Under the pieces are notes generated by a model, which saw nothing but the letters and a program-made list of their open reading frames with translations, searched no databases and was not told where the DNA came from. DNA of 64,000 nt from Alphaproteobacteria bacterium (GTDB taxonomy: Bacteria > Pseudomonadota > Alphaproteobacteria > Bin95): assembly GCA_963665325.3 (NCBI GenBank), contig CAXXWS020000002.1, forward strand, positions 497,644 to 561,643. Reading direction: 5' to 3'. Position numbers and translations under genes: made by a program. Shown in pieces: positions 1 through 50,377 of this stretch; within the stretch, counting starts at the first letter, position 1; each line of letters starts with the position of its first letter.

Positions 1-1
1 C

Positions 2-478
2 GAGAATCCTGGTGACGCGTTGGTGGATCTGGCTCCACGGGTATTGGCCAGGAGGCAGGAGAGACCAGTTTGCGTTGCGGATCGTGGGCGACGGTTCCGC
101 GCCGGCAGGCGGGAAAAGGCTGGGGGGTTGAGGCCTGTCCTTGGACTGTTCGCCGCCAGGGGCCTGGGTGGCCATGCCGAAATATTCGAGCCAGGAAGGG
201 TCGAGAGTTTCCCTGGCGGTCGGCATCGTCTCGAGGACGAGGGAAACAAGGCGCCGGCCCTGGTCCCTGCAGTCGGGTGACGGGCAGATAGCAACCAGTC
301 CCCAAGGATAGCGGCCGTCGGCAGCGGCTTTCCCGTCATGGGCCTCGATCCTGAACCAGCCGGGCTCGGCGTAGCATGTACGCCCGCAGAGCGAGCAGGA
401 CATGTGGCCGGAAACGGTCTGCTTTCCGAGAAGGGACTCGATTTCGTGCAGGCCGCGGGGGCATTCCAGTTTACGCAT
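2..478 (-). CDS. hypothetical Cys-rich protein, partial (3' end runs off the window start)
   Basis: Own translation of the minus strand: ATG at 476-478, then 159 codons open to position 2 with no stop (MRKLECPRGLHEIESLLGKQTVSGHMSCSLCGRTCYAEPGW...). GC3 about 75%. Absent from the ORF track because there is no stop inside the window. No family recognised. Confidence 0.35.
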   Translation of the reverse strand, partial: MRKLECPRGLHEIESLLGKQTVSGHMSCSLCGRTCYAEPGWFRIEAHDGKAAADGRYPWGLVAICPSPDCRDQGRRLVSLVLETMPTARETLDPSWLEYFGMATQAPGGEQSKDRPQPPSLFPPAGAEPSPTIRNANWSLLPPGQYPWSQIHQRVTRIL

Positions 479-562
479 GGAGTCGACCCGTCAGAGTGTC
501 ATTCGCCACTCATGCGGAATCGACCCAAATGCGGGCAAGGCGCCCGTCGAACTTCCTTTGCA

Positions 563-2116
563 TCACCTTCCCCGAACCTTGATCGTGCAATCCACGTACC
601 CGCTTTCGTCTTGTTCCGCCCGCTGGAAACACCCCCTTATGGCCGAACCGTAGTGCTCCCAGATATGGTCCTTCCAGCCCAGGGTGGGGTCCGCCCGGGG
701 CAGGAACGGCAAGCGGCTCTGGACCGCCGCGCCGCCGGCGAAGAAAACCAGCGCCAGCGCCGCCGCCGCCAGTGCCGTCCTTGCCACACGCCGGCGTCCC
801 CGCCTGCGATCCACGGCGATGACGGCCGTCGAGCCCGACAGCATTTCCATCTGCGGGCCCATCTTCGCGCTCCATGCCTCGATCCTGTCCACGACGCCGC
901 GAATGCCGTCCAGGTTCTCGGCCAGGTTGGCGACCGACTCCTCGCTGAGCCTGTTTCCCGCCCCGATTTCCTTCTCGGCTTCGGCGTCACTTTGCCTCCT
1001 GGCGTCCAATGTCGACTCGCCCGATCCCTCGGAACCGTCCTCCTCGTCTGCAGGGCTTTCCCGGTTCGCCTGCGGCCCCGTCTCCGGTTCGTCCCGGGCG
1101 GCCTCGGCGCGCTCTTCCCCGGCAGGGCTCACTTTACGGCTTCCCGACATCATCTCCTTGCCTAGCTTGACGGCCTTGCCTGCCACTCCCTTCGCGATAT
1201 CGAGCCCCTTCTTTGCCTTTCCAGGTCGTGGGGCTGCCGTTTCCGCTTCGCCCGCCCCTCCTTCGCCTTCGCCTCGACCCGGCGCCCCGCGCTCGTCGTC
1301 ATCGACATCGGCATCCGGATATCCGCTTGCAGCGTGCGCCCCGCCAGGCGCGTCGCGGCCTCTTTCCGTTCCGGTCCCGCTTTCAGCTTCCACGCGAGGC
1401 ATCCCGGACCGGTCGGCGCCCCCGGCCGTCTCTGCAACCTCTCCGTAGCGGTCGGTCGCTCCAGACCCGGTCACCTTGGCGATCGCCCCGGCCAGAGCCG
1501 CATCCGTCTGGCCGTCGTCGGCTTGCCCTTCGGGGACAGCTTCCGGCTCCCGGCTCGTGTCCGGGCCTTGCCCTACACTTTCGATTTCCAAGCCATCATC
1601 CGGGTCCCGGTATTCTCCCTCGCCTTCCGACAGAATCAGGCCGGTCTCCGTGTCGTATCTGTCGCCGGAGGGAGTCACCGACACAGCGCGCGTTCCGGCC
1701 CCGTCGCCGGCGCCCGGCGCCTCTTCCATGGCCGCGTCATTCGGCGGAGGTTCCGCTGCCCGTTCCGGCTCGGTGCTGTCCTGCGGGGCCGGGTTGTCGG
1801 CGTCCTCAGCCGGCGACGTTTCGACAGCGGTCTCCACACCCCCATCGCCGACCGCTTCGCTCAGGATTTTCCGCGCTGCCGTCCTCGCCTCTTCGAGGTT
1901 CATGTCTGCGTAGCGGGCGATCCGGATCCGGCGGCTCCGGACTTTCCCATCCTCCTGCCTCGTCCTGGCACTGACGATCCACGATTTTGTTCCCGAAGGC
2001 AGGATACGTAATCCGAAACCGGCCAAACCCTCGTCCCAGGCGACCCACTCCCTTTCCTTGGGCTTCAATGCATCGACGCTCGCCTGATCGAACTCAAACC
2101 TCCCTGACATCATCAC
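563..2116 (-). CDS. membrane-anchored protein with an integrase Arm-type (DUF4102-like) N-terminal DNA-binding domain, a long acidic low-complexity linker and a C-terminal TM segment; no recombinase catalytic domain
   Basis: The N-terminus FEFDQASVDALKPKEREWVAWDEGLAGFGLRILPSGTKSWIVSAR...IARYADMNLEEARTAARK matches the P4-type integrase Arm domain pattern. About 330 aa rich in D/E/G/A/P follow. Then comes the TM segment VARTALAAAALALVFFAGGAAV and a 50-aa tail with 2 Cys. A strong SD (GGGAGGTG) abuts the GTG-ATG-ATG start cluster at 2108-2116. Confidence 0.75.
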   Translation of the reverse strand: MMMSGRFEFDQASVDALKPKEREWVAWDEGLAGFGLRILPSGTKSWIVSARTRQEDGKVRSRRIRIARYADMNLEEARTAARKILSEAVGDGGVETAVETSPAEDADNPAPQDSTEPERAAEPPPNDAAMEEAPGAGDGAGTRAVSVTPSGDRYDTETGLILSEGEGEYRDPDDGLEIESVGQGPDTSREPEAVPEGQADDGQTDAALAGAIAKVTGSGATDRYGEVAETAGGADRSGMPRVEAESGTGTERGRDAPGGAHAASGYPDADVDDDERGAPGRGEGEGGAGEAETAAPRPGKAKKGLDIAKGVAGKAVKLGKEMMSGSRKVSPAGEERAEAARDEPETGPQANRESPADEEDGSEGSGESTLDARRQSDAEAEKEIGAGNRLSEESVANLAENLDGIRGVVDRIEAWSAKMGPQMEMLSGSTAVIAVDRRRGRRRVARTALAAAALALVFFAGGAAVQSRLPFLPRADPTLGWKDHIWEHYGSAIRGCFQRAEQDESGYVDCTIKVRGR

Positions 2117-2154
2117 CTCCCGCTACAGCCTTTCGTCGCACAGTTCCGGCTCAC

Positions 2155-2780
2155 GCTGGCGCGCCATGGAGCGGCCGTGGATTCCTGGAGCGCGCCCGTG
2201 GCGCTGGACCGCGCGCCATGGAGCGGCCGTGGATTCCTGGAGCGCGCCCGTGGCGCTGGACCGCGCGCCATGGAGCGGCCGTGGATTCCGTGGCGCGCGC
2301 CCGTGGGGCTGGCCCGCGCGCCATGGAGCGGCCGTGGATTCCTGGAGCGCGCCCGTGGGGCTGGCCGCGCGCCATGGAGCGGCCGTGGATTCCGTGGCGC
2401 GCGCCCGTGGGGCTGGCCCGCGCGCCATGGAGCGGCCGTGGATTCCTGGAGCGCGCCCGTGGCGCTGGACCGCGCGCCATGGAGCGGCCGTGGATTCCTG
2501 GAGCGCGCCCGTGGGGCTGGACCGCGCGCCATGGAGCGGCCGTGGATTCCTGGAGCGCGCCCGTGGGGCTGGCCGCGCGCCATGGAGCGGCCGTGGATTC
2601 CGTGGCGCGCGCCCGTGGGGCTGACCGCGCGCCATGGAGCGGCCGTGGATTCCGTGGCGCGCGCCCGTGGGGCTGACCGCGCGCCATGGAGCGGCCGTGG
2701 ATTCCGTGGCGCGCGCCCGTGGGGCTGGCCGTGCGCCATGGAGCGGCCGTGGATTCCTGGGGCGCAGCCGGCTCCACTGC
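2155..2780. repeat. tandem array of 12 copies of a ~52-bp unit (period 51-53 bp) with internally phased CC(A/G)TGG hexamers
   Basis: CCATGG cores at 2164, 2216, 2268, 2321, 2372, 2425, 2477, 2529, 2580, 2632, 2684 and 2736. There are two unit subtypes (..ATTCCTGGAGCGCGCCCGTGG.. and ..ATTCCGTGGCGCGCGCCCGTGG..). Units are directly adjacent with no unique spacers. Confidence 0.95.
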
Positions 2781-2802
2781 TTCGTCGGTTTTCCGCCGAG
2801 CC

Positions 2803-4845
2803 TCACTCTGCCGCTGCCGGCATGGACGCCGCCGGGCCGAGGCGCTTGCGTATCTTCCCGATTTCCTGCGCAAGGTCCCGGTCGAACCGGTCCAGTTCCG
2901 ACATGGCCTCCCGCCGGCGCAGCAGTCCGGCTGCTTTGAGCTTCCGCTCCACATAGGGATTGGGATCGGCATCGCCTCGCAGCGCGGCATGCTCCCAGTA
3001 GCGGGTGATGGCGAGCCGCATGGCGTCCCTCGGGAGCTCCTTGGAGGCGGCGATCACATACTGCTCGTCCGGTTTCATCATCACCAGGTCCTCGGGGCGC
3101 ACGATGCGCTCCTTGACGAGGTTGCGGCTGTCGCCGGTGGTGACCTTGTTGGCGGCGAGCAGGACCGAGCGGCCCATGGGCGTGCCGGAGGAGGTCTGGG
3201 TGTAGCCCTCGAAGGTGGCGTGGCCGATGGCCTTGGAGACTTCCTCCGCGCCGGCGGCGTCCGCGCGCGACCAGCCGAGGATCTGGACGACTTCGGAGAG
3301 GTCGATCATCTCCTGGCGGCGCTGCTTGCCCCAGCTGCCGTCGATCCCGGAGAGCGCCTGGGCGAAGGCCCAGAAATGGACGCCGCGCCCGGCGCCCGTC
3401 CTCCAGGCGTCCATGACGGGTTCGAGGTAGCCGACGGCCGGCATCTCGTCCATGACGACCAGCATGTCCTTCTTCAGAGACCGGCGGGCGGCGACGGCGA
3501 ACGGGATCGCGATCCAGAGCCTGAGCCAGGGGCGCGCCGCCTTGAGGACCTCCTCCGGCACCACGACGAAGATGTCCATGTTGCCTTCGGCCAGGTCGTG
3601 CGGATCGAATGTGCTGGCCGCCGTCTGCGCCTGGATCTTCGGATGCGCCAGGAACTGCATCTGGTTGGCGATCGTGGTGTAGTTCGAACCGCTCTCCTGC
3701 TTGCCGATGGCCTGCTCGGACTCCATGGCGCGGTGCGCGAGCCCGCCGGCGAACATGTCGCCCTCGAGGATCTGCGCCATCAGTGCGCTGCGCCTGTCGG
3801 GACCGGCCGAGAGGTTGTCGAACACGTGGGCCAGGTTCCGCTTCTCCTTCTCCGCCCCATAGGCCGCCCAGGCGATATGGCCGGAGATCAGGCGCTTGGC
3901 GCTCTCGTGGAAATGGCGGCTGTTGCCGCCGTCGTTCGCGGGCGGCGTGAGCAGGCCCTGGACGAGCACATCGACATCCTGGACGGCCTTCTCCTCGCCG
4001 CGCAGGAAATCGAGCGGGTTGTAGGTGTGCTTCTTCGCGAAGCGCGGCAGGTGGCAATGGGGATGCTGTTCGCGGTGGCGGTCGATAACGCCATAGGGGT
4101 CGAGCAGGATGACCTCGCGGCCGAGCTCGCGCCGGCGGCGGGCGACGATCGGATAGAGCTCGCCGCGCGGGTCGATGGTGACGGTCGAGCCCTGCCAGCC
4201 GCGCCCGTGGGGGGCCAGCATGTTGGCGGCGATGAGCGCGCCCTTGCCGGTGCGGGGCGGGGCGATGGTGACGGCATGGCCCTCGAGCGGCCAGACGGCG
4301 AGCGGGGCGCGGCTGCCGGGCCCGGTCTGGCCGAGCAGGATGCCGTCCTGGCGCCGCGCGAGCTTCCGGAGATGGCGCGCGCCCATGAGCTTCGAGGCGC
4401 CGTGGAGCTCGGACTTCGACCGCCTGCGCCTGGCGATCCGCCCGGCGCCGGTGAGCGCGGTCAGCAGCGCTACCAGCCAGAGGAACCCGAGCAGGGGCGC
4501 GATGAGCAGCGGCGCCGCCAGCCGGAACGCGTCGATCGCCGCGCTGCCCTTGGCCAGCGCCAGGACCCCGCCGAACTCGCCGGCGAGCAGGAACGGCGCC
4601 GTGTCGATCGCGATCGACATGGCGGCGATGGCGGCCGTCGGTCCCCAGACGCCGATCTTCCAGCCGAGGCCGCCGCGCTTGAGCTCGGTGAACAGCAGCA
4701 CGGCGAGCGAGGCCGCGGCCATGCCGGCAAGCGCCCAGCCCCGCAGCTCCGGATCGGGCCGTTCGGTCCAGAGCCACCAGACGAGGCCGGCGCCCGGAAT
4801 GCCGGTCGCCAGCGCCAGGCCCAGATGGGTTGCAAATCCGCCCAT
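2803..4845 (-). CDS. type IV secretion coupling protein (VirD4/TraG/DotL family)
   Basis: Multi-TM N-terminus, Walker A APPRTGKGA, and TraG/VirD4-like blocks TIDPRGELY, LLDPYG, YNPLDFL, VVMDEMPAVG. The track ORF starts at 4875, but the ATG at 4845 has a GGAAGGAA SD 6 nt upstream and is preferred. Confidence 0.85.
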   Translation of the reverse strand: MGGFATHLGLALATGIPGAGLVWWLWTERPDPELRGWALAGMAAASLAVLLFTELKRGGLGWKIGVWGPTAAIAAMSIAIDTAPFLLAGEFGGVLALAKGSAAIDAFRLAAPLLIAPLLGFLWLVALLTALTGAGRIARRRRSKSELHGASKLMGARHLRKLARRQDGILLGQTGPGSRAPLAVWPLEGHAVTIAPPRTGKGALIAANMLAPHGRGWQGSTVTIDPRGELYPIVARRRRELGREVILLDPYGVIDRHREQHPHCHLPRFAKKHTYNPLDFLRGEEKAVQDVDVLVQGLLTPPANDGGNSRHFHESAKRLISGHIAWAAYGAEKEKRNLAHVFDNLSAGPDRRSALMAQILEGDMFAGGLAHRAMESEQAIGKQESGSNYTTIANQMQFLAHPKIQAQTAASTFDPHDLAEGNMDIFVVVPEEVLKAARPWLRLWIAIPFAVAARRSLKKDMLVVMDEMPAVGYLEPVMDAWRTGAGRGVHFWAFAQALSGIDGSWGKQRRQEMIDLSEVVQILGWSRADAAGAEEVSKAIGHATFEGYTQTSSGTPMGRSVLLAANKVTTGDSRNLVKERIVRPEDLVMMKPDEQYVIAASKELPRDAMRLAITRYWEHAALRGDADPNPYVERKLKAAGLLRRREAMSELDRFDRDLAQEIGKIRKRLGPAASMPAAAE

Positions 4846-4991
4846 GGCGTTCCTTCCTTCGGAGCTTGTCTGCATTTCCGGTCATGCGGTTGTTCCGGGG
4901 GCCGACCCCGACCCGACCCGTCAATCCGGGGCGGCCGAAGCCGCCCCGATCTCCTTTATTTTCTTCATCGTGCTGCTCCAGTCGGCGATCT

Positions 4992-7313
4992 TCACAGCCC
5001 GTCATCCACGGGCGATTGCGGGCCCGGCCCCCCGCGGCCGGTCGGCAGCCGCCCGCCGCCGCGCCCTCTTTGACCGACCCGCATCGGTCCGACGCGCCCG
5101 AACGCGCCCGCGATGCCGCCGCCGAGGCGGTCGGCCTCGCCGTCCCTGCCGTCGCGCCCGCCGATCCAGTCCATGGCGATCGAGGGCAGGTGGTCGATCA
5201 GCTTGAAACAGCCGTTCATCAGCCCGTAGACGGTCATCAGGTAGATCGCCAACATGGCGAGCCAGCCGAGCACGCCGATCCCGTCCGAGGCGCCGGCGTC
5301 GAACACGAGGCCCCGGAACACGTCGTTGAAGGTGTCCATGATCGTGACGAACAGCAGGTAGCCAGTGACGAGGCCGAACAGCATCAGCACCGGGCGCAGG
5401 ATCAGCCCGGGCAGGAAGAGCCAGCCCTGGCGGGTCGCCTGCGTGACGAACCCCTCGCCGCGCACGGTGTGGCCGGCGAGCCAGACCGGCATGGCGAACA
5501 CGGCCGCGATGACGGCGACCAGCCAGGCGAGCAGGCCGAACAGGAACCGCAGGAACGGCAGCACCGGCACGAGATAGGCCAGCACCAGGCCGGCCAGGAT
5601 CATCACGCCCAGTATGGTCGAGATGAAGCTGTCCATGACCTGCCATGCCGCCTCGAACGCATCCAGCCCGCCGCCGATGAGCGGGATGGAGTTCAGCAGG
5701 TTCGATCCCGTCGCAAGGCCGCCGAGCAGCAGAATCGAGCCGAGCGCCTTGGTGACCAGGCTGTGTCCGAGCGAGACCAGGTCCAGGATCGGGTTGCCGC
5801 TGTCGACCAGCTGGATGTCCTCGATGTCGAGCCAGTCGAAGGAGCCGCGCCCGATCCCGCCGATGCCGCCGGAGCCGGGCGCGGGGTCCGCGCCGGCGCC
5901 CAGCACGGCCGGATATTCGAGCGAGCCGGCAAGCTGCTCGGCCGCCGCGGTCACCGCCGCGCTCGCCTGCGGGACGCGCTCGCCGAGCCGTGCGGACGGG
6001 CCCGCAACCCTCGGAATGCTTCCCGCGCCCAACTGGTATTCGCCGACATGGCGGGTTATGGTCATGAACAGCGAGGCCGCGAGCGTCCAGGGGCTGTTCT
6101 TCGCCTCCTCCTGCAGCGCCTCTTCGAGCGCGTTCGTGGCCTCGTCCCGGGTCGAGTCCGCCGCCGCCCTCACGGTCGCCAGATACGTCCCGAGCGGATC
6201 GGCGCCGACCAGCAGCGCCTCGATATCGGGCAGCGGGCCGTCATTGCGCACCGTGCCGGGGGGTGCGGCAAACCATAGGGCCACCCGGTCCGCAATGGCG
6301 CCCAGCGCCGGACGGATGGCGTCGAACGCGGCGCTCTGGGCCTCCGCCATCTTTCCGCCTGGCGTCACGCCGCCGTCGAGGCCCGACAGCCTGACGCTGC
6401 CGCACATGCCCTTCGGCATGCCGCCGGCCTTGCCGTCATAGCTTAGCGTCCGGAAGCCCCGGCCCCTGTAGGCCCTTCTCTGCTGCTGCAGGGGGCTGGA
6501 CCTCTGCGTCTCCGTCACCTCGACATAGGGCGGGTCGCCGACCTCCCGGGCCGCCAGGTTGGCGGTGCGCGCGCAGAGTTCCGCCAGGAAGATCCCCGCA
6601 ATGGCGGCCCGGAGCGGGCGCTGGTGCGGCGCCGGCGCCACCATGGTCCCGTTGCCGAGCACGTCGCGGGAGAACTCGCCCCAGACGATCTGGGCGATAT
6701 CGCCGCCGGTGCGGGCGAGCGAGAGCGCGATATGCTGGCCGCCGGAGAGCCCGCCGGCGAGCGGGACCATGAGCAGGAACGCGGCCACGATCCGGAGCGT
6801 CTCCTTGCCGGTGAACCCCCAGCGGCCCCGGCTTGCGGTATCGACCGTGCCGGCCGCCGTCCACCAGACGAGCAGCACGCCGGCGAGAACCAGGATCGCG
6901 CCGTTGTAGATCGTCAGCATGCCGGAGAGCGCGGTATTGTTGCCGGCATCGAGATCGGAGAGGAACGCCAGCAGGGCGCGTCCCGCTTGATCGGGCTCGC
7001 CCGACAGGTCCGGGACGGGCGGTGTCTGGGCCTCCGCCGGCGAGGACCCTGTCCACATGGCGAGCGCGGCCATGGCGATCCATATCAGCCCGGCGAGCGC
7101 CATGGCGACGCCGAGCCAGCCGAGCGGCCCGCGCGGGCGCGGCAGTCCGCTCTTGCCGCGCCGACGTGGCAGTCCGCCTCCCGCTCCCTGCGGCCGTCGC
7201 AGGCCGCCGGATATCGTGCGCAGCAGGCCGGCGGCGTCCCCGAGCGCCCGCGCGGCCGGGCCGAACAGATCGGGCAGCAGGATATAGCGGGCGAGGGAGG
7301 GACGGCGCGCCAT
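4992..7313 (-). CDS. dotA: large polytopic membrane protein, DotA/TraY-like
   Basis: 773 aa. The C-terminal half has many TM helices and Gly-rich loops (..LIGGGLDAFEAAWQVMDSFISTILGVMILAGLVLAYLVPVLPFLRF..). It occupies the TraY position, after the TraU-V-W-like genes and before the coupling protein, as in IncI R64. Confidence 0.6.
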   Translation of the reverse strand: MARRPSLARYILLPDLFGPAARALGDAAGLLRTISGGLRRPQGAGGGLPRRRGKSGLPRPRGPLGWLGVAMALAGLIWIAMAALAMWTGSSPAEAQTPPVPDLSGEPDQAGRALLAFLSDLDAGNNTALSGMLTIYNGAILVLAGVLLVWWTAAGTVDTASRGRWGFTGKETLRIVAAFLLMVPLAGGLSGGQHIALSLARTGGDIAQIVWGEFSRDVLGNGTMVAPAPHQRPLRAAIAGIFLAELCARTANLAAREVGDPPYVEVTETQRSSPLQQQRRAYRGRGFRTLSYDGKAGGMPKGMCGSVRLSGLDGGVTPGGKMAEAQSAAFDAIRPALGAIADRVALWFAAPPGTVRNDGPLPDIEALLVGADPLGTYLATVRAAADSTRDEATNALEEALQEEAKNSPWTLAASLFMTITRHVGEYQLGAGSIPRVAGPSARLGERVPQASAAVTAAAEQLAGSLEYPAVLGAGADPAPGSGGIGGIGRGSFDWLDIEDIQLVDSGNPILDLVSLGHSLVTKALGSILLLGGLATGSNLLNSIPLIGGGLDAFEAAWQVMDSFISTILGVMILAGLVLAYLVPVLPFLRFLFGLLAWLVAVIAAVFAMPVWLAGHTVRGEGFVTQATRQGWLFLPGLILRPVLMLFGLVTGYLLFVTIMDTFNDVFRGLVFDAGASDGIGVLGWLAMLAIYLMTVYGLMNGCFKLIDHLPSIAMDWIGGRDGRDGEADRLGGGIAGAFGRVGPMRVGQRGRGGGRLPTGRGGPGPQSPVDDGL

Positions 7314-7319
7314 GGCGGA

Positions 7320-8459
7320 TCAGTTCGCCCCCGCCCGTCCGGCGACCCTGCGGTCGCGGTCGATCCGCGCCGCCAGCATCGCGGCCTGGATGGCGAGGCG
7401 GCGCTCCTCCAGGCGGAACCGCTCGCGGTCGAGCAGCAGCGAGGCCGCAAGCAGCGAGGCGGTCTCGCGCAAGAGCGCCTCGCCGCCCATGGACTGGAGC
7501 TCCGTCCACCAGGCCGTGCGCTCGAACCGTTTCGCGGCCAGCAGGTCGACCAGCTCCAGCCGGCTGACAGCCGCTTCCGGATCGCGGTCCGGATCGACCG
7601 CCGCCGCCCAGGCGCCGAGTTCGGGTCCGGGCGCCCTGAGCGCGCGCAGATGGCCGAGCGCCTCGGCCGCCAGCGCGCGCCGGGCGGCGGCCGACCGCGA
7701 GGCCATGACGCGCGCGCGCTCCGAGGCGGAGTCGACGGCGCCGAGCGGCTCGGGGTCCTCGACCGCCGGCACGGTCAGGTTGCGGGAGAGGTCGATCGCC
7801 GCCTGCAGCTCGTTTTCCGAGGCGAAGGTCTCGACGCCGAACAGGCTGTCGGGGCGCAAGTCCGCGCCATGGTCCTCGGACGCGCCCGAGCAGGCCGCGC
7901 TCTGGAGCGGCGCGCGGTCCGGGCTGCACCAGCGCTCCAGGATGCGCCGGTAGCGCTCGGCGCTGTCGGTGGCGGCTGCCGGTGCCGATCCCGTCGCCCG
8001 GTCGCCGGCGATGCGGCCGGTCTCGGAGACGGCGGCCGCGCGGCCCGCGAGTCGGCTCGCGGCGCGCGCCTGGGCGAGGCCCTCCGCGCCGGTGGTCACG
8101 GTGCAGGCCGAGCGCGAGGGCCGGCGCGCGACCTGCGCCTTCACCTCGGCCGCCTCGCGCTCGGTCTGCGCGCGCACCGCGGCATGGCTGTCGATCGCCG
8201 TGGTGATCGCCTTCGCGCTCTGCGCGATGTAGCCCGACTGCTGGCCGGTCTGCCTCACCAGCGCGTCATGGATGGTGCGTTCCAGGATCGCGATGCGGGC
8301 GTTCACCCTGGTGATCACCCGGCTCGCCTCGCTCACCGTCTTCCAGGTCGGCGTGCATTTGCCACCGCCGCCGAAGAACGCCTCCGCTGGCGTGGCGGCG
8401 AGCGCCCAGGCCGCGACAATTGCCGCCCCGGCCGTCAGGAACCGCGCCGTCCTGCTCAT
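7320..8459 (-). CDS. secreted periplasmic T4BSS-associated protein (TraW/IcmX position)
   Basis: Signal peptide MSRTARFLTAGAAIVAAWALAATPAEA. ATGA overlap with the upstream gene at 8456-8459. Assignment is from synteny only. Confidence 0.5.
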   Translation of the reverse strand: MSRTARFLTAGAAIVAAWALAATPAEAFFGGGGKCTPTWKTVSEASRVITRVNARIAILERTIHDALVRQTGQQSGYIAQSAKAITTAIDSHAAVRAQTEREAAEVKAQVARRPSRSACTVTTGAEGLAQARAASRLAGRAAAVSETGRIAGDRATGSAPAAATDSAERYRRILERWCSPDRAPLQSAACSGASEDHGADLRPDSLFGVETFASENELQAAIDLSRNLTVPAVEDPEPLGAVDSASERARVMASRSAAARRALAAEALGHLRALRAPGPELGAWAAAVDPDRDPEAAVSRLELVDLLAAKRFERTAWWTELQSMGGEALLRETASLLAASLLLDRERFRLEERRLAIQAAMLAARIDRDRRVAGRAGAN

Positions 8460-8986: not shown

Positions 8987-11900
8987 GCCGCCGCTCCACG
9001 CCGCTGTTGTCTGCCGGCCAGCCGGTCGGCCATGGCGTCCAGCACCTCGCGCACCGAGGCGCGGGAGCGGGCGCCGCGCGCCTCCAGCTCTGCCAGCACG
9101 TGCTCGATCTGCTGGAGAGCTGATCCGGCCGGGAACGCCTCGGCGAGCACGCGCCGCGCCTCGGCCGGCCCGAGGCGGGACTGGACCCTGCGCCTCAGCG
9201 CCACGTCCACCGGCCTTGTATTGAGCGCCCAGAGCTCCTGCGGCCCGGGCGCATTGACCACCAGCTGCTCCAGCCGCCCGCGTTCGCCGGGGGCGATCAG
9301 CAGCGCCGGCGCGCCGCCCGGGCCGGGTCCCGTCAGCTCGAACTTCACGATGTCGTTCAGCGTGTCCGTCAGGCCGAACGTGGCCGCCATGGCCTCGACC
9401 TCGCGCGCCTGGCCGCCCGCGCCCAGGATCCAGTATTGCGTCGCCAAATCGACCAGGCCGTCGCCGAAGTCCTCCAGCCGCTGGCTGGAGAGCGCGAGCC
9501 GGGCGCCCGCCTTCCTTGCCTCGCGCACGTCGCGCTCCACCTGGGCGCGCACGGCCGGCGCCCCGGCCGTGCGGTGGTATTCGTCGTAGCAGAGCCGCTT
9601 CGGGGTCTCGCGGACCTCCCGGTTGCGCCTGGCGTGCCAGTCGCGGTAGCGCTCCGGCACCCCGGCCAGGTCCTCTTCCGCCAGCCACCAGGTCCGCGTC
9701 AGCGCATGGCGGGCCAGCATGTAGAACGCCGCCGTCTGCCGGTCGGCCTCGGGGCTGCCCGTCGGCGCGACTTCGGCGAGATCGATCACCGCGAGGCGCG
9801 CATTGCCGATATCGAAGGACGTCGCCCGGAACATGTTCGGCCAGGCTGAGGAGAGCCCCGTCAGGATGCGCCGGAACGCGGCCGTCACCGTCTCGCCGCC
9901 GGACCCGTAACGGGCCTCGCGCACCAGGCCCTGCACGGCTTCGGCCTGCGCCGCCGAGGGCAGCTCCGCGAATGTCGGCGCCGCGCGGCGCTGCGCCCGG
10001 ATGGCGGCCTCGACGGCGCCGGCCTCGAAGAGCGCATCGACGACCTCCCATTGCAGCGCCTCTCCGTGCAGGGCGATCCCGTAGAGGTCGAGCGCGGCAT
10101 CCACTTGCGCGTCCTCGCCCCGGTTCCAGAGCTTCGGCTCGCCGTTCCTCGCCGTGTCGGAGGCGAGCTTGTAGGCTTCCTCGACGGTGGCCCCGATCAG
10201 CTCGCGCATGCCGTCGGGCAGGCCGCCGCTGCCGACCGGCGTCACCATCAGCGAGAGCAGGTTCACGAGGAACGCGCGCTCGGCCGGCAGCGGGAAGCGG
10301 CAGCCGAGCTGCGTGTCCATGGGGTTGACGGCATCGGAGGCGTCCATGCGCCAGCGCCAGCGGCCCGCCTCGTGGCGCCGCGAGACCGGCAATGCGTCGC
10401 GCACCATCTCCACGAGCCCGGCCGCCGAGGGCCCGATATCGACGACGGCCTGCAGCGGCAGGCGCGCCTGGCCGCCCTGGAGGCAGAAGGCGAGCCCGAG
10501 CGTGTTCAGCAGCACCGACTTGCCCCGCCCCGGAATGCCGTGGATCAGGTCGAAGCCGTGCTCGGCGCCCTCGAAGCCGAAGGGCAGCGCCTTGCCGTCG
10601 GGCGCCATGAACATGTGCGAGGCGGCCGCCATCCGGTCCGACCGCGCGAGCGGCGCCGGGCGCGACACCGGCAGCATGCGCAGCACCTGGTGAAGAGGCG
10701 CCAGGCCCGCCACCGCAGTCGAGCCGCAGGCGAAGCCCGGCGCCGACATCGCCAGCGCCTGGAGCGGGTCTCCGGTGACGCGCGTCACCGCGATCTCACC
10801 CCAGCCCTCGACGAGCTGCTGCAGACGGCTCGCGCGGCGCGTCAGCTCCTCCCGCCTCGCTTCCGTCGCGATCGGCCCGTCCACCCAAGTCAGGAACTGG
10901 ACCCGGACCCTGACCACGGCGCGCCCGGTGTCGGCATGGGCGGCAAGCGCCCGCGAGGCGTCGCGCACCGCCAGGCTGTCCGAGGAGGAGAACGCCAGGA
11001 ACGGCGCGAGCGCATGGCGCAGCACCGCGCCCGCATGCTTCATGCCGCCGCCTTCGATCAGCACCGAGACGCGGAGCGGCAGGTTGCCGGCGGCCGCCAG
11101 CCGCGCCATCAGCTCGGAGAACGGCCTCACGATGCGGGGTCCGAGCTCCATGTCGAACGGCGCCCAGAGGCGCGGGCCCAGCAGCACCGTGCGGGCGTCG
11201 AGAACCTCCGGGTCCTGGATCAGCACCTGCGGGGCGAGCGGCGGCGGGAAGGCGCCCAGGATCGCGGGCTCCAGCTGGCGCGGCGGGGCCTCGTTGGCCG
11301 AGGTCACCGGAACCCAGCCGTCGCCGACGCTCTCCGGGCCCATCAGCCACCAGCGCAGCACGCGCACCGCGTCATGCGCGCCGAGAACCCGTGCGACCAG
11401 GCCCGTCTCCTCCAGCACGGCCTGCACGGACTCCGTGAACGCCAGATGCCTTGCGCCCAGCGCGCCGTCGGCCGCGAACGGGCATTGCGACTCGTCATCG
11501 CCCGGCGCCCAGTCCTGCATCCGGCGCTCGATCGCCTTCCTCTCGCGCTTCGCCTGGTCGCGCGGCAGCACGGCCGCGCCGCTCCAGCAGGCGATGGTGA
11601 GCCGCTCGCCCGCCGCCCGGGGCGCCAGGCGCTCAACCCTCTCGGCGATCGGGCCCTCGAGATCGAGCCCGAGCCGGGCGCAGCTCTGCCGCTGGCGCCC
11701 GGCCGCGTCCTCGAGCAACCGCCTTCCTTCCTCCGGCGCGCGCTCGAAGACGACATGCAGCGTGTGGCCGCGCTCCAGGAACGCCGTGCCGAGCCGGCGC
11801 TCGACCGTCTCCACCAACCGGTCCAGCTCCGCCTCTCCCATCGCGCTGCGGGCGCCGCCGACATCGATGACCGACGCAAGCGAGCCGTCATGGCCGATCA

Positions 11901-12452: not shown

Positions 12453-12805
12453 TCGCCGCGCCAGACGGGCGGTTCATGTCCAATGGCCAAACCCTCCAGC
12501 AGCGCCTCGATCAGCGAGGGCGCCGTGGCCAGCGCGACCGCGAAGGCGATCCCCACCACCGGCGTAATCAGGCCGCCGGGCTTCGGGGCATCGAAATGCA
12601 TTTTGAGCCTCAGGAGCGCCCAACCGCCGACGCACACTGCCAGCGCGTAGAATGTCCATGTCACCAGCCACGGCAGCAGGTCCTCGAGCGGATGGCCGGG
12701 GCGGTACAAGAGGTCCTCGCCCATCCCGTAAGGCTTCGCGACCGCCATGCCGGCCGCCAGCGACGCGCCGGCCGCGAAGGCGGAATACGCCGCCCGCCGC
12801 CTCAT
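12449..12805 (-). CDS. small inner-membrane T4BSS protein, paralog of 12024..12452
   Basis: Trimmed from track ORF 12449..13447 to the ATG at 12805 (ATGA overlap). ..GGWALLRLKMHFDAPKPGGLITPVVGIAFAVALATAPSLIEALLEG. Confidence 0.6.
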   Translation of the reverse strand: MRRRAAYSAFAAGASLAAGMAVAKPYGMGEDLLYRPGHPLEDLLPWLVTWTFYALAVCVGGWALLRLKMHFDAPKPGGLITPVVGIAFAVALATAPSLIEALLEGLAIGHEPPVWRGE

Positions 12806-16574: not shown

Positions 16575-17275
16575 CGGCCCGCCTCCCTCGTCAGATGCAG
16601 CAGCGCGACCGCGATCCCGGCGAGCCGCTCCGAGCGCGACATGCGCATCACCAGCGCCTTCGCGCGGAGCGTCTCCTCGACCCGCTCGTCCTCGCCCGCC
16701 CAGAAGGTCAGCAGCAGCGGGAACTCGACCTCATAGCCCACGCCCCCGTCGTCGAAACGGCGCACCCGCAGGAGCACCGGCGCGCCCCGCGCCACCGCCG
16801 AGACCGCCTGGCCCTGGCTACCGACGCGCTGGAATACGAGGCTCTGCTCCAGCATCCGCCGGTAGCTCTCATAGCCCTCGTCCGTGAACCGCTTGCGAAC
16901 GCCCTCCACCCGCATCCGGAAATCGTGGAAGCCCATGGTGAAGGCCTCGGTCACGGCCGCCACCGTCCAGGTGAGCATGAAGCCCACCTCGTCCTGGGCA
17001 TCTGCGTTCTCCGCCGAGACGATCGGCAGCGTGCGGCCCGCCTGGTCCGTCGCGACCGCGACATAGACGGTCTCGCGCATGCCCATCCACAGCGCCAGCG
17101 CCGCCACCGTCAGAGCCTGGCCGGCAAGCGCGATCCCGGCGACCCGGCGCCAGACGCGGTGCTGCGCGATGTGGTAGGCCTCGGAGCGCGACACCGCCTC
17201 CATGACCGCACCGAGACGGGACGCGCGCTGCGTCTCCCTGCGTACCGTCCGGTCCCGCCACCAGAGGAGCCTCAT
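16571..17275 (-). CDS. second DotI/IcmL-family paralog (DotJ-like)
   Basis: Trimmed from track ORF 16571..17464 to the ATG at 17275 (ATGA overlap). ..VGFMLTWTVAAVTEAFTMGFHDFRMRVEGVRKRFTDEGY..YEVEFPLLLTFWAGE.. is clearly paralogous to 15912..16574. Confidence 0.75.
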   Translation of the reverse strand: MRLLWWRDRTVRRETQRASRLGAVMEAVSRSEAYHIAQHRVWRRVAGIALAGQALTVAALALWMGMRETVYVAVATDQAGRTLPIVSAENADAQDEVGFMLTWTVAAVTEAFTMGFHDFRMRVEGVRKRFTDEGYESYRRMLEQSLVFQRVGSQGQAVSAVARGAPVLLRVRRFDDGGVGYEVEFPLLLTFWAGEDERVEETLRAKALVMRMSRSERLAGIAVALLHLTREAGR

Positions 17276-18240
17276 CGCCGCGCCTCCGTCGTCATGAAGT
17301 CCGCCGAGGCCGGCAGCCCGGCATAGGTGCGAATCCCGCCGTCCCGCCCACGCCAGGCGAGCCACGGCACGGCGTCGGCCCCGAAGGCGCGCCAGAGCGC
17401 ATTGTTCGCCTCCAGGCGCAGCGCGTCCTCGGCGGTCGCCGGCGCCGGGTCCGAGCGGTACCACGCGAGGCCCGGGCGGGGCGAAGCAAGGATCCCGGCC
17501 GCATGCGTATGGGAGTCGGGGCTCATCACGCCCACCGGCACCGCATGCAGGCGGAACGCGCCCTCGAGCGCCAACTGCCCCAGCTCCGCCGCCGCACGCC
17601 TGGACCAGGGACAGCCGGGATCGACGAACGCGACCAGGTCCGGACCGCTCTCGCCCACCGTGAAGGCCGCGACATCGAGGCTGCGCTCGAACAGGGCGGC
17701 CGCGCGCGCCGGCCGCGCCGGGCCTGTGCCCGGGACCGAATGGCGCGGTTCTGCCGCCTCGCCGGCCGCAGCGCGCACCGCATCCGCCAACACGGCCTCG
17801 CCCGTTGCCGGCAGGGCGGCCCCAGCGGGGCTCGCTGACCGCGTCGGACCCGCAGTCCGCGTCGGACCCGCAGCCCGTTCGAGCTGGCCGCCCGTGAGCT
17901 CCAGGCCGTCCGGGCCGTAGAGCAGGCCCGCCACGACATGCCCGCCGGGCGCGGCATAGACCGTCAGCACGCTGCCGTCCGCCTTGCGCACGAGCCAGCC
18001 GTCCAGCACGCCCGCGCGCCCGAGCGGCACGAGCTCCGCGCCGGCATCCCGGAGCGCCGCCAGCGACGCCGGCGGCGGGTCCGACGCGGACCGCGGGCCC
18101 AACGTGGGCTCCGTGCCCGGCGCAGACTGCGGGTCCGGCGCGGACTGCGGGGCCTCTGCCGAGCGCCCGAGGCTGAGCCCGCCCAGGATCGCCAGCACCA
18201 GCAGCGCCGAGAACGCGAATGCGCGAAGGATCGTCTTCAT
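17272..18240 (-). CDS. periplasmic thioredoxin-fold DsbC/DsbG-like protein with a CPWS (CxxS) motif
   Basis: Signal peptide MKTILRAFAFSALLVLAILGG. DsbC-like N-terminal dimerisation-like region (GWLVRKADGSVLTVYAAPGGHVVAGLLYGPDG). Thioredoxin-like VAFVDPGCPWSRR. Confidence 0.6.
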   Translation of the reverse strand: MKTILRAFAFSALLVLAILGGLSLGRSAEAPQSAPDPQSAPGTEPTLGPRSASDPPPASLAALRDAGAELVPLGRAGVLDGWLVRKADGSVLTVYAAPGGHVVAGLLYGPDGLELTGGQLERAAGPTRTAGPTRSASPAGAALPATGEAVLADAVRAAAGEAAEPRHSVPGTGPARPARAAALFERSLDVAAFTVGESGPDLVAFVDPGCPWSRRAAAELGQLALEGAFRLHAVPVGVMSPDSHTHAAGILASPRPGLAWYRSDPAPATAEDALRLEANNALWRAFGADAVPWLAWRGRDGGIRTYAGLPASADFMTTEARR

Positions 18241-34499: not shown

Positions 34500-35498
34500 C
34501 TAGGGGTTCGAGGCGGTAACGGTTTTCGGTAACGTGTCCCTGCGGTCGTTGCCGTTGAGGGCGGCGAGGCGGTATCCGCCTTCGGATGCGCGCTCGACGC
34601 GTCCTTCGCGGACGAGCCTGTGCAGCGCCTCGGCGACGGTTGCGGGCCGGGTTGCCGCGCGCTCGCGGATCCGGCGCTGGGAGAGCGGCGCGTCGGCGTC
34701 GGCGAGGGCCTGCAGGATGCGCCGTTCGGGGGTATCCGGCTCCGGCGCCTGGTCTTCCGGCGTCTCGCGCAACCGCAGGGCGGGGCGCTCGTCGTCGTCG
34801 GCGAGTTCGATCTCGAGGTCTTCGAGGCCAGGGGCGTCGCGATGCTCGACGGTCATGAGGATCTGGCGGTCTCGCCGGCGCAGGTACAGATTCGAATCGC
34901 CCCAGGCGTGAAGTTCGCTGCTGCCGCGCAGCGCCTGCCCGGGCCGGGAGCCGCCGCTCTTTCGTGCGTGATGGACGAGGAGGACGGCGGTTTCGAAGCG
35001 GCGCTGTATGTCGCGCAGGAAGCCCAGCATGGGGGCGACCTCGGCGACGGTATTTTCGTCGACGCCGTGCAGGCGCACGAGGGGGTCGAGGACGACGAGG
35101 CGGGGTGAGACGCGCTCCACCGTCTCGACCAGGCGCTGGCGATCGGCGCGATGGTCGAGACGCAGCGTGGGCACGTCGATGACGGCGATGTCGAGGGTCT
35201 CGAACGCGGTGCCTGCCGCCTTTGCGATGCCCTGGAGGCGTGCGCGCACGATATGGCCGGCGTCCTCGGCGGCGAACAGCAGCACGGGGCCGCTTGCGGC
35301 GGGACGGAAGTGGCGCAGGCAGGGGACGCCGGCGGCGACCGCGACGGCGATGTCGAGTGCGAGGAAGGATTTGCCGCACTTGGGCTCGCCGCCGACGATG
35401 CCGACGCCCTGCTCGGACCACAACGCCTCGACCATCCAGCGGCGCGCCTGGGGGCGCTCTTCGAGCTCCGCCGGCGCCCGTGTCGGGAAGCCCTTCAC
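34500..35498 (-). CDS. RepA/RecA-like AAA_25-type ATPase with a C-terminal winged-helix domain
   Basis: Trimmed from track ORF 34500..36512 to the GTG at 35496-35498 (GTGA overlap). Walker A GGEPKCGKS, Walker B-like RLVVLDPL. C-terminal wHTH ..RRILQALADADAPLSQRRIRERAATRPATVAEALHRLVREGRVER... Confidence 0.7.
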   Translation of the reverse strand: MKGFPTRAPAELEERPQARRWMVEALWSEQGVGIVGGEPKCGKSFLALDIAVAVAAGVPCLRHFRPAASGPVLLFAAEDAGHIVRARLQGIAKAAGTAFETLDIAVIDVPTLRLDHRADRQRLVETVERVSPRLVVLDPLVRLHGVDENTVAEVAPMLGFLRDIQRRFETAVLLVHHARKSGGSRPGQALRGSSELHAWGDSNLYLRRRDRQILMTVEHRDAPGLEDLEIELADDDERPALRLRETPEDQAPEPDTPERRILQALADADAPLSQRRIRERAATRPATVAEALHRLVREGRVERASEGGYRLAALNGNDRRDTLPKTVTASNP

Positions 35499-36328
35499 CG
35501 CCGCGCCCTCCTCGGCTTGGCGGGTTCGCCCAGGGTCTCGATGAAGAGCTTCTCGTCGAGGACCTCGCGCTCCTTCTCGGCGGCGGCGGCGAGCAGGGCG
35601 TCGGCCATGACGGTGAGCGCCCGCGGGTTGCCGTCGGCATGGGCGACCAGGGTGTCCTTGAGGCCCGCGGTCATGAGGCCGGGATTGCCGGCCTGCTCGA
35701 TCAGATGGTCGAGCAGGGCCGCGAGGTCGCCGGCCTCGGCCTTGGTCATGACCAGGCGCTGGCGGATGCGCGAGGCGATGGGCTGCAGATCGGGCTGGCG
35801 GAGCTTGTCGAGCAGGCGCGTGTCGCCGGCGAGGACGACCGAGAGGATGGCGCGCGAGTCGAAGTCGGTCGAAGCCAGCAGGCGGATCTCGGAGAACACC
35901 GAGGGCAGCAGCTCCTGGGCCTCGTCGACGAGCACGACGGGGCGCATGCGGGTATCGTCGACATGGGCGAGCCAGCGCTCGCGCAGGCTTTTGAAGCTGG
36001 CCCAGCGGTTGTTGTACATCAGGTCGACGCCGAACATCTCGCCGATCTCGCGGTAGAAGTCGGACAGCCGGGAGGAGGGATGGGTGATGGCGGCGATGCT
36101 GAGCCCCTCGCAGCGGCCGAGACGGTCGGCGAGCAGGCGCAACGCCACACTCTTTCCGGCGCCGGGCTCGCCGGCGATCAAGGCGAAGCCGCCCTGGCGC
36201 ACCAGGTGGCGCTCGATCCTGAGGCAGAAGCTGTCGACGGCAGGCGTCGCCATGAGACTGTCGACCGGCAGGTCGGTGGCGAAGGGGTTCCACTTGAGCC
36301 CGTAGAAGGTGAGCAGTTCCCGGTTCAT
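35495..36328 (-). CDS. TniB/ExeA-like AAA+ transposition ATPase
   Basis: Walker A GEPGAGKS, Walker B VVLVDEAQ. ATGA overlap with the transposase stop. Confidence 0.8.
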   Translation of the reverse strand: MNRELLTFYGLKWNPFATDLPVDSLMATPAVDSFCLRIERHLVRQGGFALIAGEPGAGKSVALRLLADRLGRCEGLSIAAITHPSSRLSDFYREIGEMFGVDLMYNNRWASFKSLRERWLAHVDDTRMRPVVLVDEAQELLPSVFSEIRLLASTDFDSRAILSVVLAGDTRLLDKLRQPDLQPIASRIRQRLVMTKAEAGDLAALLDHLIEQAGNPGLMTAGLKDTLVAHADGNPRALTVMADALLAAAAEKEREVLDEKLFIETLGEPAKPRRARR

Positions 36329-49349: not shown

Positions 49350-49597
49350 CGGGCGCAGCGCCAGATAAGGGTCCCTGGATTGCGTGAGAGAGCGGAAGCC
49401 GGGCCTGTCCGGCTCCAGCGAGCCGACCGAACCCAGGCGGGCCTCTACGGACGCCGCATCTCGCGCAACCTCATCCTGGTCGAACCAGCCGCAGCCCGGC
49501 AGCAGAATTGCCGCCGCGAGGAAGAGCGCCCCGACAGCCCCTCCGGAACCTGACGCGGCAGCGTTCGAACCGGCCGTAAGTCCTTGTCGAGCGGTAG

Positions 49598-50377
49598 TTG
49601 ACAGACCCCCGAATCCCCATCATCCTTCTTCCGAATGCAGTTGCCGGTCGGGTGCTTTTCATGGACCTGCTGGTGGCGCGGGAGAACACCGAGGGCTTCT
49701 ATGCCGACCGCAACATGTTCGCAGGCTCGGGCGAGTTCATGGCGACCGAGGATGTCGGGCTCGCAGTGCGCAAGATCACCCGCAGGGGCTCGGAAAGGAT
49801 CGCCCGCGCCGCCTTCGCCGCCGCCCGCGACCGGCGGCGCAAGGTGACGGTCGTCCACAAGTCGAATGTGCTGAAACACACGGACGGCCTCTTCGAGCGC
49901 GTGGCCTACGAGGTCGGCGCCGAGTGGCCCGATGTCGAGGTGGACGATGTGCATGTCGATGCCGCCGCCGCGCTGCTCGTTCGCGAGCCCGAGCGTTTCG
50001 ACGTGCTGCTCTGCACCAACATGTTCGGCGACATCCTCTCCAATCTCGCTGCGGAGTTGTCGGGTGGCCTCGGGCTCGGCGGCTCGATCAATGCGGGCGA
50101 TGCAGTGGCTGTGGCCCAGGCCGCGCACGGCAGTGCGCCGGACATTGCGGGTAAGGACATGGCCAACCCGAGCGCGCTCCTGTTCTCGGCGGCGCAACTG
50201 CTCGCATGGAAGGGCGCACGGGAGCAGAACAACTCGCTCATGGAAGCCTCGCGGGTGCTGGAACGCACCGTCGAGAGGCTGCTTGCCTTGCCCGAAACGC
50301 GCACGTTCGACCTCGGCGGCCCGCTCGGCACGCGGGCGTTTGCCGACAGGGTGGTCGCCGGCATTTCTGACGGATAG
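49598..50377 (+). pseudogene. 5'-truncated isocitrate/isopropylmalate/tartrate dehydrogenase-family gene (lacks roughly the first 90-100 codons)
   Basis: The reading frame begins just before the conserved ..DLLVARENTEGFY.. block, which normally lies about 100 aa into these enzymes. It continues through ..CTNMFGDILSNLAAELSGGLGLGGSIN.. to a normal C-terminus. In-frame TAG and TAA occur immediately upstream. Confidence 0.7.

Follow-up and report, generated by a model that had tools for sequence, protein, structure and literature searches.

A helically phased tandem-repeat array as the probable DNA target of a membrane-anchored arm-domain protein in an alphaproteobacterial conjugative island

We examined a 64,000-nucleotide stretch of an Alphaproteobacteria bacterium genome assembly (GCA_963665325.3, contig CAXXWS020000002.1, positions 497,644 to 561,643; its full length is called the window below), in which a tandem array of ~52-bp repeats separates the gene for a type IV coupling protein (T4CP) from a gene whose product joins an N-terminal arm-type DNA-binding domain (the Arm domain) to a C-terminal transmembrane (TM) helix, and which we call Arm-TM. 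The array and both genes are on the minus strand. Comparison of this region with its relatives makes it probable that the Arm-TM protein encoded next downstream has the array as its cognate, multivalent target on the DNA. An earlier note on this DNA had proposed a protein-loading array serving the adjacent Arm-domain protein, a proposal now supported at the sequence level by the position of the array in 15 of 16 distinct related loci, by its co-variation with the Arm domain and by the arm-type fold of that domain.

Tandem Repeats Finder reports positions 2159–2765 as a single tandem array (period 52, 11.7 copies, 95% matches, score 1050). Its twelve head-to-tail units, which read GGTCCAGCCCCACGGGCGCGCTCCAGGAATCCACGGCCGCTCCATGGCGCGC in the sense of the genes, are 51–53 bp long (52, 52, 53, 51, 53, 52, 52, 51, 52, 52 and 52 bp in order, followed by a truncated twelfth unit). 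The repeats described in the earlier note are thus borne out, including its twelve CCATGG coordinates (an exact match), the order of its two unit subtypes (AABABAAABBBA') and the hexamer offsets of 0, +11, +20 and +32/33 within a unit. We counted 40 strict CC[AG]TGG cores and 7 CCTGG cores, giving ~47 where roughly 45 had been estimated. Read in gene sense, the cores are direct and of the YCCAYGG type, with about five per unit and a phasing of 10.4 bp. At 10.4 bp (52/5) the positions of the cores give a mean resultant length of 0.87, compared with 0.26 at 13 bp, 0.27 at 8.67 bp and 0.49 at 17.3 bp, in agreement with the suggestion that the hexamers lie about one helical turn apart. Each unit has five slots, and the slot at offset ~42 holds just a degenerate GCTGG. 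A partial dyad, CCGTGGCGC, had been assigned to every unit; we found it in units 1, 2 and 6 and in those of subtype B, and not in the remaining ones.

As previously noted, the array fills the gap between the two genes. It ends 37 bp from the T4CP stop codon (2803–2805), and its start at position 2159 lies 48 bp from the likely ATG of the Arm-TM gene (2110) or 42 bp from a GTG (2116). It is also the most GC-rich stretch locally, at 78–79% (array and flanks, 69–79%; window overall, 70.7%). The 27-mer GCGCGCCATGGAGCGGCCGTGGATTCC occurs in 12 copies, all within the array (11 exact and one with a single mismatch), and has no match outside it in the 64 kb at up to three mismatches, with none expected from shuffled sequence. 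The 17-mer core and paired CCRTGG hexamers likewise have no copy elsewhere in the window, and clusters of the core motif outside the array are absent from the window, including the end of the island described below. The array is neither coding nor a clustered regularly interspaced short palindromic repeat (CRISPR) locus, as had been concluded before. Its period is not a multiple of three (units of 51–53 bp, with periods of 52, 53, 62 and 64 bp among those of the relatives) and all six reading frames are open through it, so that open reading frames (ORFs) across the array carry no weight; its units follow one another head to tail without spacers. A structured RNA was also set aside (no Rfam match at E ≤ 1 in positions 1500–3500, and a folding z-score of just −2.5).

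The Arm-TM gene (563–2110) encodes a protein of 515/517 residues. Its N-terminal domain (approximately residues 3–90, encoded by positions 1847–2110) matches Pfam family PF13356 (Arm-DNA-bind_3, E=1e-9), and the structural model has a pLDDT of ~90 over residues 1–90. The best Foldseek matches of this domain are PDB entries 3ju0 (E=6e-5, target TM-score 0.68) and 3jtz (E=3e-4, target TM-score 0.81), the arm-type binding domains of the HAI7 and HPI integrases. A sequence search of the PDB with the protein gave a marginal match to 3jtz only, and the fold was confirmed by the structure search. The closest relatives of the domain in sequence are the N-termini of P4/CP4-type integrases. No recombinase domain (PF00589) is present in the Arm-TM protein, which beyond residue 90 consists of a linker, a TM helix and a small domain. 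The linker comprises ~300 acidic residues that are predicted to be disordered and leads into a long predicted juxtamembrane helix (residues 392–433; linker and helix together, positions 797–1846). The helix is followed (563–796) by an arginine-rich stop-transfer segment (DRRRGRRR), a helix at approximately residues 441–468 and a C-terminal domain of ~50 residues with two invariant cysteines (W-K-D-H-x-W ... C ... C). Because the arginine cluster lies N-terminal to the helix, the positive-inside rule predicts a cytoplasmic Arm domain and a periplasmic two-cysteine domain.

The C-terminal TM and two-cysteine module belongs to a small family, with 120 representatives (E ≤ 1e-3) among 1.84 billion sequences. 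Among 90 distant members of that family, only six have an Arm domain and a single one is a fusion with a T4CP, which suggests that the module is a T4CP-associated membrane component. This distribution further suggests that such a module may have gained a DNA-binding head, together with an array, in the present lineage.

Near-full-length relatives of the Arm-TM protein number 27 among 5.8 billion clustered sequences, all of them from metagenome assemblies or metagenome-assembled genomes labelled Alphaproteobacteria, and 21 loci were examined. The order T4CP gene, gap, Arm-TM gene is kept in 16 distinct loci, among which the T4CP is 77–98% identical, and a tandem array occupies the gap (348–1062 bp, 2–12 copies) in 15 of them. 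The array periods are 42, 48, 52/53, 62, 63, 64, 105 and 117 bp; unit sequence and period are wholly different between classes of Arm domain while the T4CP remains at that level of identity. The unit type of the window (52–53 bp, 8–11 copies) is found in loci L001, L014, L017 and L003/L005. A second class (L002/L004 and L021) has a 64-bp unit unrelated to it, with the core GGCGSCTYC. Units of 63 bp are present in L006 (10.9 copies, core GGTGCY) and L015 (7.8 copies, core GGTGTGCY), units of 48 bp in L008/L011 (8.2 copies, core GACATCCGNGAC) and units of 42 bp in L018 (7.6 copies, core GGTCCCAYGG), and the periods in L007 and L016 are 62 and 117 bp. In L012 only a T4CP remnant is left, followed by twelve 105-bp units and an Arm gene resembling class 1; the units contain GAATCCACGGCCGTTTCCATGG, which is the core of the window inside a different unit. 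In all of the examined loci, arrays were found within the flanks only at the junction between the T4CP and Arm genes.

The periods of eight of nine array families (42, 52.5, 62, 63, 63, 64, 105 and 117 bp) lie no more than 1.5 bp from a multiple of 10.5 bp (binomial P ~3e-4), as do five of six when only the clearly independent periods are counted (P=0.009). Together with the 10.4-bp phasing of the cores, this clustering means that the sites face the same side of the helix from one end of the array to the other, which is the layout that a cooperative, one-sided protein coat would require.

Alignment of the Arm-TM proteins revealed discrete N-terminal classes on a common body. We compared the 9-mers shared between intergenic regions with protein identity over 13 non-redundant loci (78 pairs), taking residues 1–85 as the Arm domain. 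Shared 9-mers were correlated with the identity of the Arm domain (Spearman 0.37, Mantel P=0.0006), and the correlations with the rest of the protein (Spearman 0.22, Mantel P=0.10) and with the T4CP (Spearman 0.11, Mantel P=0.28) were not significant. The relationship is threshold-like: all pairs with an Arm identity of at least 78% share 9–57% of their 9-mers, and all those at 76% or below share at most 11% (mostly 0–3%). The window and L017 have Arm domains that are 89% identical, share 40% of the array and are 45% identical over the remainder of the protein; the window and L002 share 8% of the array with Arm domains that are 41% identical, a remainder that is 80% identical and T4CPs that are 97% identical. 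These two comparisons are a double dissociation, by which sequence identity indicates that the array tracks the Arm domain, and neither the T4CP nor the remainder of the Arm-TM protein.

Sliding identity plots located the exchanged block between ~20 nucleotides past the T4CP stop codon and codon ~110–160 of the Arm gene. The same boundaries recur in the pairs window/L002, L001/L002, L017/L018 and L006/L007, and reciprocally in window/L017 and L014/L017, indicating that the array and the Arm domain form one cassette, with the Arm segment as its right-hand part, which was exchanged at least four times and has passed between two or more backbone lineages. The left edge falls in the non-repeat spacer that separates the T4CP stop from the array (2766–2802, reading GGCTCGGCGGAAAACCGACGAAGC... 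in gene sense). The first ~20 nucleotides past the stop are identical in six loci regardless of array type (100% between the window and L002), and this constant segment marks the left boundary of the exchangeable cassette. On the other side of the array, the leader (2111–2158) carries a Shine-Dalgarno sequence (GGGAGG, 2116–2121) and an in-frame TAG just upstream; its sequence is common to the class-1 loci and different in those of class 2. The last ~40 residues of the T4CP (2803–2930 in the window, and the corresponding 3' ends in L001–L021) exist as two unrelated tail types, A (...DRFDRDLAQEIGKIRKRLGPAA...) and B (...EEVWEADLAEARKRYRAxLKRMGLDLDAEE...). They mark the backbone lineages, and follow the type of the Arm-TM linker and C-terminus rather than the cassette, a match that may reflect either the backbone lineage itself or contact between the T4CP tail and the Arm-TM protein.

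Several observations weigh against the pairing of array and Arm domain proposed here. The array and the Arm segment are only ~50 bp apart, and linkage could account for some of the co-variation. The locus L020 has an intact Arm domain and a T4CP-to-gene gap of 5 bp (7998–8004), with no array within 8 kb on either side; the 48-bp family does not fall on a multiple of 10.5 bp; and one genome holds L008 and L011, two copies of a single type, on separate replicons, so that mutual exclusion of types is not strict. The palindromic CCATGG and GCGCCATGGCGC could suit a dimeric binder other than the Arm domain. Finally, a scan of positions 1500–3500 gave no sigma-70-like promoter or terminator, and no partner nucleoside triphosphatase was found among the window ORFs scanned; any of these could have linked the complex to a given process. 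Three features point beyond linkage. The core is kept while the unit around it is rebuilt (52 versus 105 versus 42 bp, with TCCAYGG and TCCCAYGG). Loci L009/L010 contain a short Arm-TM gene (265 residues) with an Arm domain like that of L018 and no T4CP nearby; in front of this gene lie the decayed remains of an array, GGTCCCAYGG/GCGCCCATGG, spaced at 52 bp. L013 (from Dehalococcoidia; T4CP 45% identical) encodes at the same gene position a protein that lacks the Arm domain, and it also lacks the array.

If the array is the target of the Arm-TM protein, each 52-bp unit would present four to five short, direct YCCAYGG cores about one helical turn apart, and the twelve units would together line up ~50 sites along the same side of ~600 bp of DNA. 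These cores would be bound by the Arm domain at the N-terminus, while the C-terminal helix anchors the protein in the inner membrane and the ~300-residue acidic, flexible linker allows it to reach the DNA. Some 50 membrane-anchored copies could thereby coat the array and tie the DNA of the island to the inner membrane, the product being a high-avidity, membrane-tethered nucleoprotein complex beside the T4CP gene. Most likely, such a complex would hold or position the DNA of the island, when excised or in transfer, at the membrane close to the island's own type IV secretion machinery, or would retain the excised form for inheritance. As the array lies in the leader of the Arm-TM gene, autoregulation would be unavoidable if it is bound, and binding would simultaneously throttle read-through into that gene.

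In this scheme the array and Arm domain would act as an exchangeable specificity cassette that gives each island its own DNA 'address'. Genomes with at least two islands carrying different cassettes fit such an element-specific address: CAXXPN01 has 64-bp and 63-bp arrays and the short variant, OY730441 has 52-bp and 62-bp islands, and OZ2197xx has 48-bp and 105-bp islands. We offer more tentatively the possibility of a new kind of 'membrane centromere' for conjugative islands, in which the TM adaptor docks the DNA of its own island at the coupling protein and the type IVB machine, and the swappable cassette defines transfer or incompatibility groups among near-identical co-resident islands.

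A different purpose for the same complex is suggested by the ToxR, CadC and TcpP regulators, which consist of a cytoplasmic N-terminal DNA-binding domain of the OmpR-type winged helix class, a short linker, a single TM helix and a periplasmic cysteine-pair domain, and which regulate chromosomal virulence or stress genes. ToxR itself binds tandem direct repeats of variable copy number (TTTTGAT upstream of ctxAB). The Arm-TM protein resembles these regulators in its predicted topology, with an N-terminal DNA-binding domain, one TM helix and a periplasmic domain. No relation in sequence or fold was found, and it is not a member of that family, since it has an arm-type fold and no OmpR-type winged helix. 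In a corresponding explanation, which we regard as doubtful, the Arm-TM protein would be a membrane-bound one-component regulator whose two-cysteine domain senses an envelope or periplasmic cue, and the array would be its operator, controlling read-through from the T4CP operon or the protein's own level, with no role in tethering, positioning or transfer. The predicted cytoplasmic DNA-binding head, single TM helix and periplasmic two-cysteine domain agree with this explanation. So does the location of the array directly upstream of the gene, which leaves no room for a separate promoter, so that binding would necessarily affect transcription. However, ~50 sites over 0.35–1.3 kb in almost all relatives are far more than would be needed for an operator, a structural complex is suggested by the ~300-residue linker and by whole units being in helical phase, and no regulated promoter was detected in positions 1500–3500. 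This explanation shares with the one we prefer the binding of the array by the Arm-TM protein, and is a rival only as to the purpose of the resulting complex.

It is improbable that the array is instead a functionless, fast-evolving minisatellite that expanded in a tolerant intergenic spot and was co-inherited with the neighbouring Arm segment during recombination. Identity within the arrays (95–96%) and a variable copy number are as expected from slippage or unequal crossing-over (copy number differs between L002 and L004, and between L003 and L005, even though the Arm domains within each pair are identical), and linkage to the adjoining Arm segment would be expected as well. Against this, independent unit architectures (42 to 117 bp) occupy the same site in 15 of 16 loci, a short core survives rebuilding of the unit, the periods cluster on multiples of 10.5 bp, several exchanges have cassette boundaries that match the array edge on one side and the Arm-domain end on the other, and the locus without an Arm domain is also without an array.

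The position of the array directly downstream of the T4CP gene recalls clt/TraB of Streptomyces plasmids, in which plasmid-specific short direct repeats at or near the 3' end of the translocase gene serve as a cis-acting transfer locus that is read by the translocase (TraB) itself. The present array similarly lies at or near the 3' end of a translocase gene. Unlike TraB, the T4CP remains constant while the arrays change (97% identity between loci with unrelated arrays), which rules it out as the specific reader and requires that a separate protein have that role. An oriT or transfer-recognition locus read by the T4CP or a relaxosome (as for clt/TraB, or TraM-sbm of F), or an iteron replication origin, is quite improbable. 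The island does encode a NikA-like accessory protein, and one scrambled two-array remnant (L022, below) lies beside an ssb gene, but the NikA-like gene is 16 kb distant. As to an iteron origin, iterons are 17–22 bp long, as opposed to units of 51–53 bp in the window and 42–117 bp across the loci; no Rep gene or Rep family match was found nearby, and there is no AT-rich unwinding element (the array, at 78–79% GC, is instead a local maximum).

Arm-type folds are known to recognise short direct repeats spaced about one helical turn apart, as at P'1–P'3 of lambda attP. The Arm domain shares this DNA-binding fold with the lambda, P4 and HPI families of integrases (3ju0 and 3jtz), and both the fold and the co-variation fit a putative arm-type reader of the array. 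Unlike integrase arm sites, the array has no core crossover site and offers tens of binding sites rather than three to five; the protein has no catalytic recombinase domain, and its Arm domain is fused to a linker, a TM helix and a periplasmic domain. Arm sites of an attP were rejected for the lack of PF00589, because the array is internal among tra genes, and because no motif cluster was found at the island junction at ~49.5 kb. We consider it highly improbable that the array is a decoy or sink of arm-type sites for a tyrosine integrase of the island, tuning excision or integration: the nearest sequence relatives of the Arm domain are indeed integrase N-termini of the P4/CP4 type, but no integrase gene is present in the window or in the 8-kb flanks of the relatives, co-variation with the array is shown by the Arm domain that forms part of the membrane protein, and no cluster of the core motif lies where the island ends in the window.

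With respect to known systems, the array and Arm-TM protein appear to work most like StbA/stbDRs and ParR/parC, and are a member of neither family. StbA of R388 is described as a ParB-like DNA-binding protein, homologous to TraK of RP4, that acts on short direct repeats upstream of its own operon in a conjugation region; the stbDRs comprise two sets of five 9-bp repeats with 2-nucleotide spacing and 11-bp phasing, and the complex controls where in the cell the plasmid is located, balancing stability against transfer (PMC3098194). The present loci share with it a direct-repeat array of approximately helical phasing located just upstream of the gene of a DNA-binding protein in a conjugation region. 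They differ in the size of the array (8–12 units of 42–117 bp as opposed to two sets of five 9-bp repeats) and in the arm-type fold, for which no relation to StbA was found, and no counterpart of its partner ATPase StbB was found. In pCW3-like plasmids of Clostridium perfringens, near-identical conjugative backbones carry diverged, family-specific ParMRC protein/repeat pairs that permit related elements to coexist (PMC9426499, PMC2241845). As with ParR and parC, our arrays are direct repeats upstream of the gene of a putative adaptor, and differ in sequence and spacing by family. ParR, however, is a ribbon-helix-helix protein that works with the actin-like ParM, whereas the Arm-TM protein is of the arm type, membrane-anchored and encoded by a chromosomally integrated element.

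The earlier note had likened the array to plasmid centromeres (parC/parS), iterons and integrase arm sites. These likenesses hold for the way the array may work; as family membership they do not, because each fails on at least one defining feature. The array does lie beside the gene of its putative binding protein, as a centromere would (ending 42–48 bp upstream, in a position kept in 15 of 16 loci). That protein is neither ParB (helix-turn-helix) nor ParR/ParG (ribbon-helix-helix), PF13356 being the sole domain recognised in it, and no ParA, ParM or TubZ was found among the 43 window ORFs scanned (several of which match no family) or in the 8-kb flanks of the relatives. A megablast search of plasmid databases with positions 1–8000 returned nothing, and a tblastn search of plasmid databases with the Arm-TM protein returned integrase N-termini only.

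No published description of the module formed by the Arm-TM gene and its array was found in searches of the full-text literature. Judging from the comparisons above, what is most likely novel is a 'repeat array plus cognate adaptor' with a membrane-anchored arm-domain reader and a swappable specificity cassette, and the swapping of array and Arm domain points to an undescribed way of marking the DNA of mobile elements. If the predicted binding is true, the pair would be a new combination of cis-site and trans-factor in conjugation, in which an integrase arm domain without a recombinase is anchored in the membrane and reads a large, helically phased array next to the T4CP gene. It would also provide a testable handle on how the DNA of a mobile element reaches, or stays at, the membrane transfer machine, and would bear on the avoidance of cross-talk between closely related elements in one cell. 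In that case the matched Arm domains and cores (YCCAYGG, GGTCCCAYGG, GGCGSCTYC, GGTGCY, GGTGTGCY and GACATCCGNGAC) would constitute a data set for the recognition code of arm domains, and could help in the construction of orthogonal DNA-tethering parts.

The conjugative island that houses the array spans positions 1 to ~49,400 and is of IncI/Dot-Icm (type IVB) type. The T4CP gene directly upstream of the array (2803–4875) is of the VirD4/TraG-like type (PF02534, E=1.6e-39). Its identified products include DotA/TraY, a weak TraW match, a TrbI/DotG-like protein, two DotI/IcmL paralogues, a DotB/TraJ-like ATPase, a TraI lipoprotein and DotD, and the island further encodes an SNase nuclease, the thin-pilus proteins PilS, PilV-like and PilN, HU and the NikA-like protein. 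Tandem repeats of 18 bp near the NikA-like gene (17839–17877 and 18064–18151) were considered as a cis site and rejected as coding; they encode PQSAPD-type repeats in a secreted 322-residue protein (17272–18240) with a signal-peptide-like N-terminus. An IS21-like pair (an integrase-core transposase and an AAA_22 helper, 35495–37800) sits in the thin-pilus gene block. The end of the island (49400–50377) adjoins an isocitrate/isopropylmalate dehydrogenase gene that is truncated at its 5' end (its match covers only profile positions 123–347), and from 49.6 kb on the genes are chromosomal (GlnE, AmtB and others). At the same chromosomal site, the genome ctg49708c (L035) retains a deleted remnant of the island in which only the final 148 codons of the Arm-TM gene survive, with 99% identity to the window; the T4CP, the array and the Arm domain are missing.

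A dispersed element of the repetitive extragenic palindromic or bacterial interspersed mosaic element type, which the earlier note had named as a finding that would overturn its reading, is argued against, within the sequences covered, by the lack of any copy outside the array in the 64-kb window and by the outcome of scans of Joint Genome Institute (JGI) metagenome and viral contigs. Ten JGI contigs matched GAATCCACGGCCGCNCCATGG, nine of them as single matches without an array, and the viral scan gave three contigs with single matches, in DNA of 42–43% GC. The tenth JGI contig is L022 (12047–12724), a remnant in which an ssb gene is followed by a class-1 53-bp array (5.3 copies), a T4CP coding fragment and a class-2 64-bp array (2.9 copies). 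The block is bounded by a duplicated ~100-bp segment, and has the appearance of a scrambled junction where two types of cassette meet.

Downstream of the Arm gene, the relatives carry varied cargo. Perfect short-unit repeats in L014 (13853–13918, GACCGCC in 9.4 copies) and L017 (10842–10893, GACCC in 10.4 copies) lie at the 5' ends of methyltransferase/restriction genes in this cargo and resemble phase-variation switches, and L020 contains a perfect GAGGCGC repeat of 11.7 copies twice (11002–11083 and 12666–12747). The cargo region of L016 (13039–16884) encodes a Cas13a-like protein, and that of other relatives includes toxin-antitoxin pairs, MmeI-like restriction-modification systems and an E2/ThiF/JAB/patatin gene. 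The variety of defence genes following the Arm gene identifies that position as a hotspot for defence cargo.

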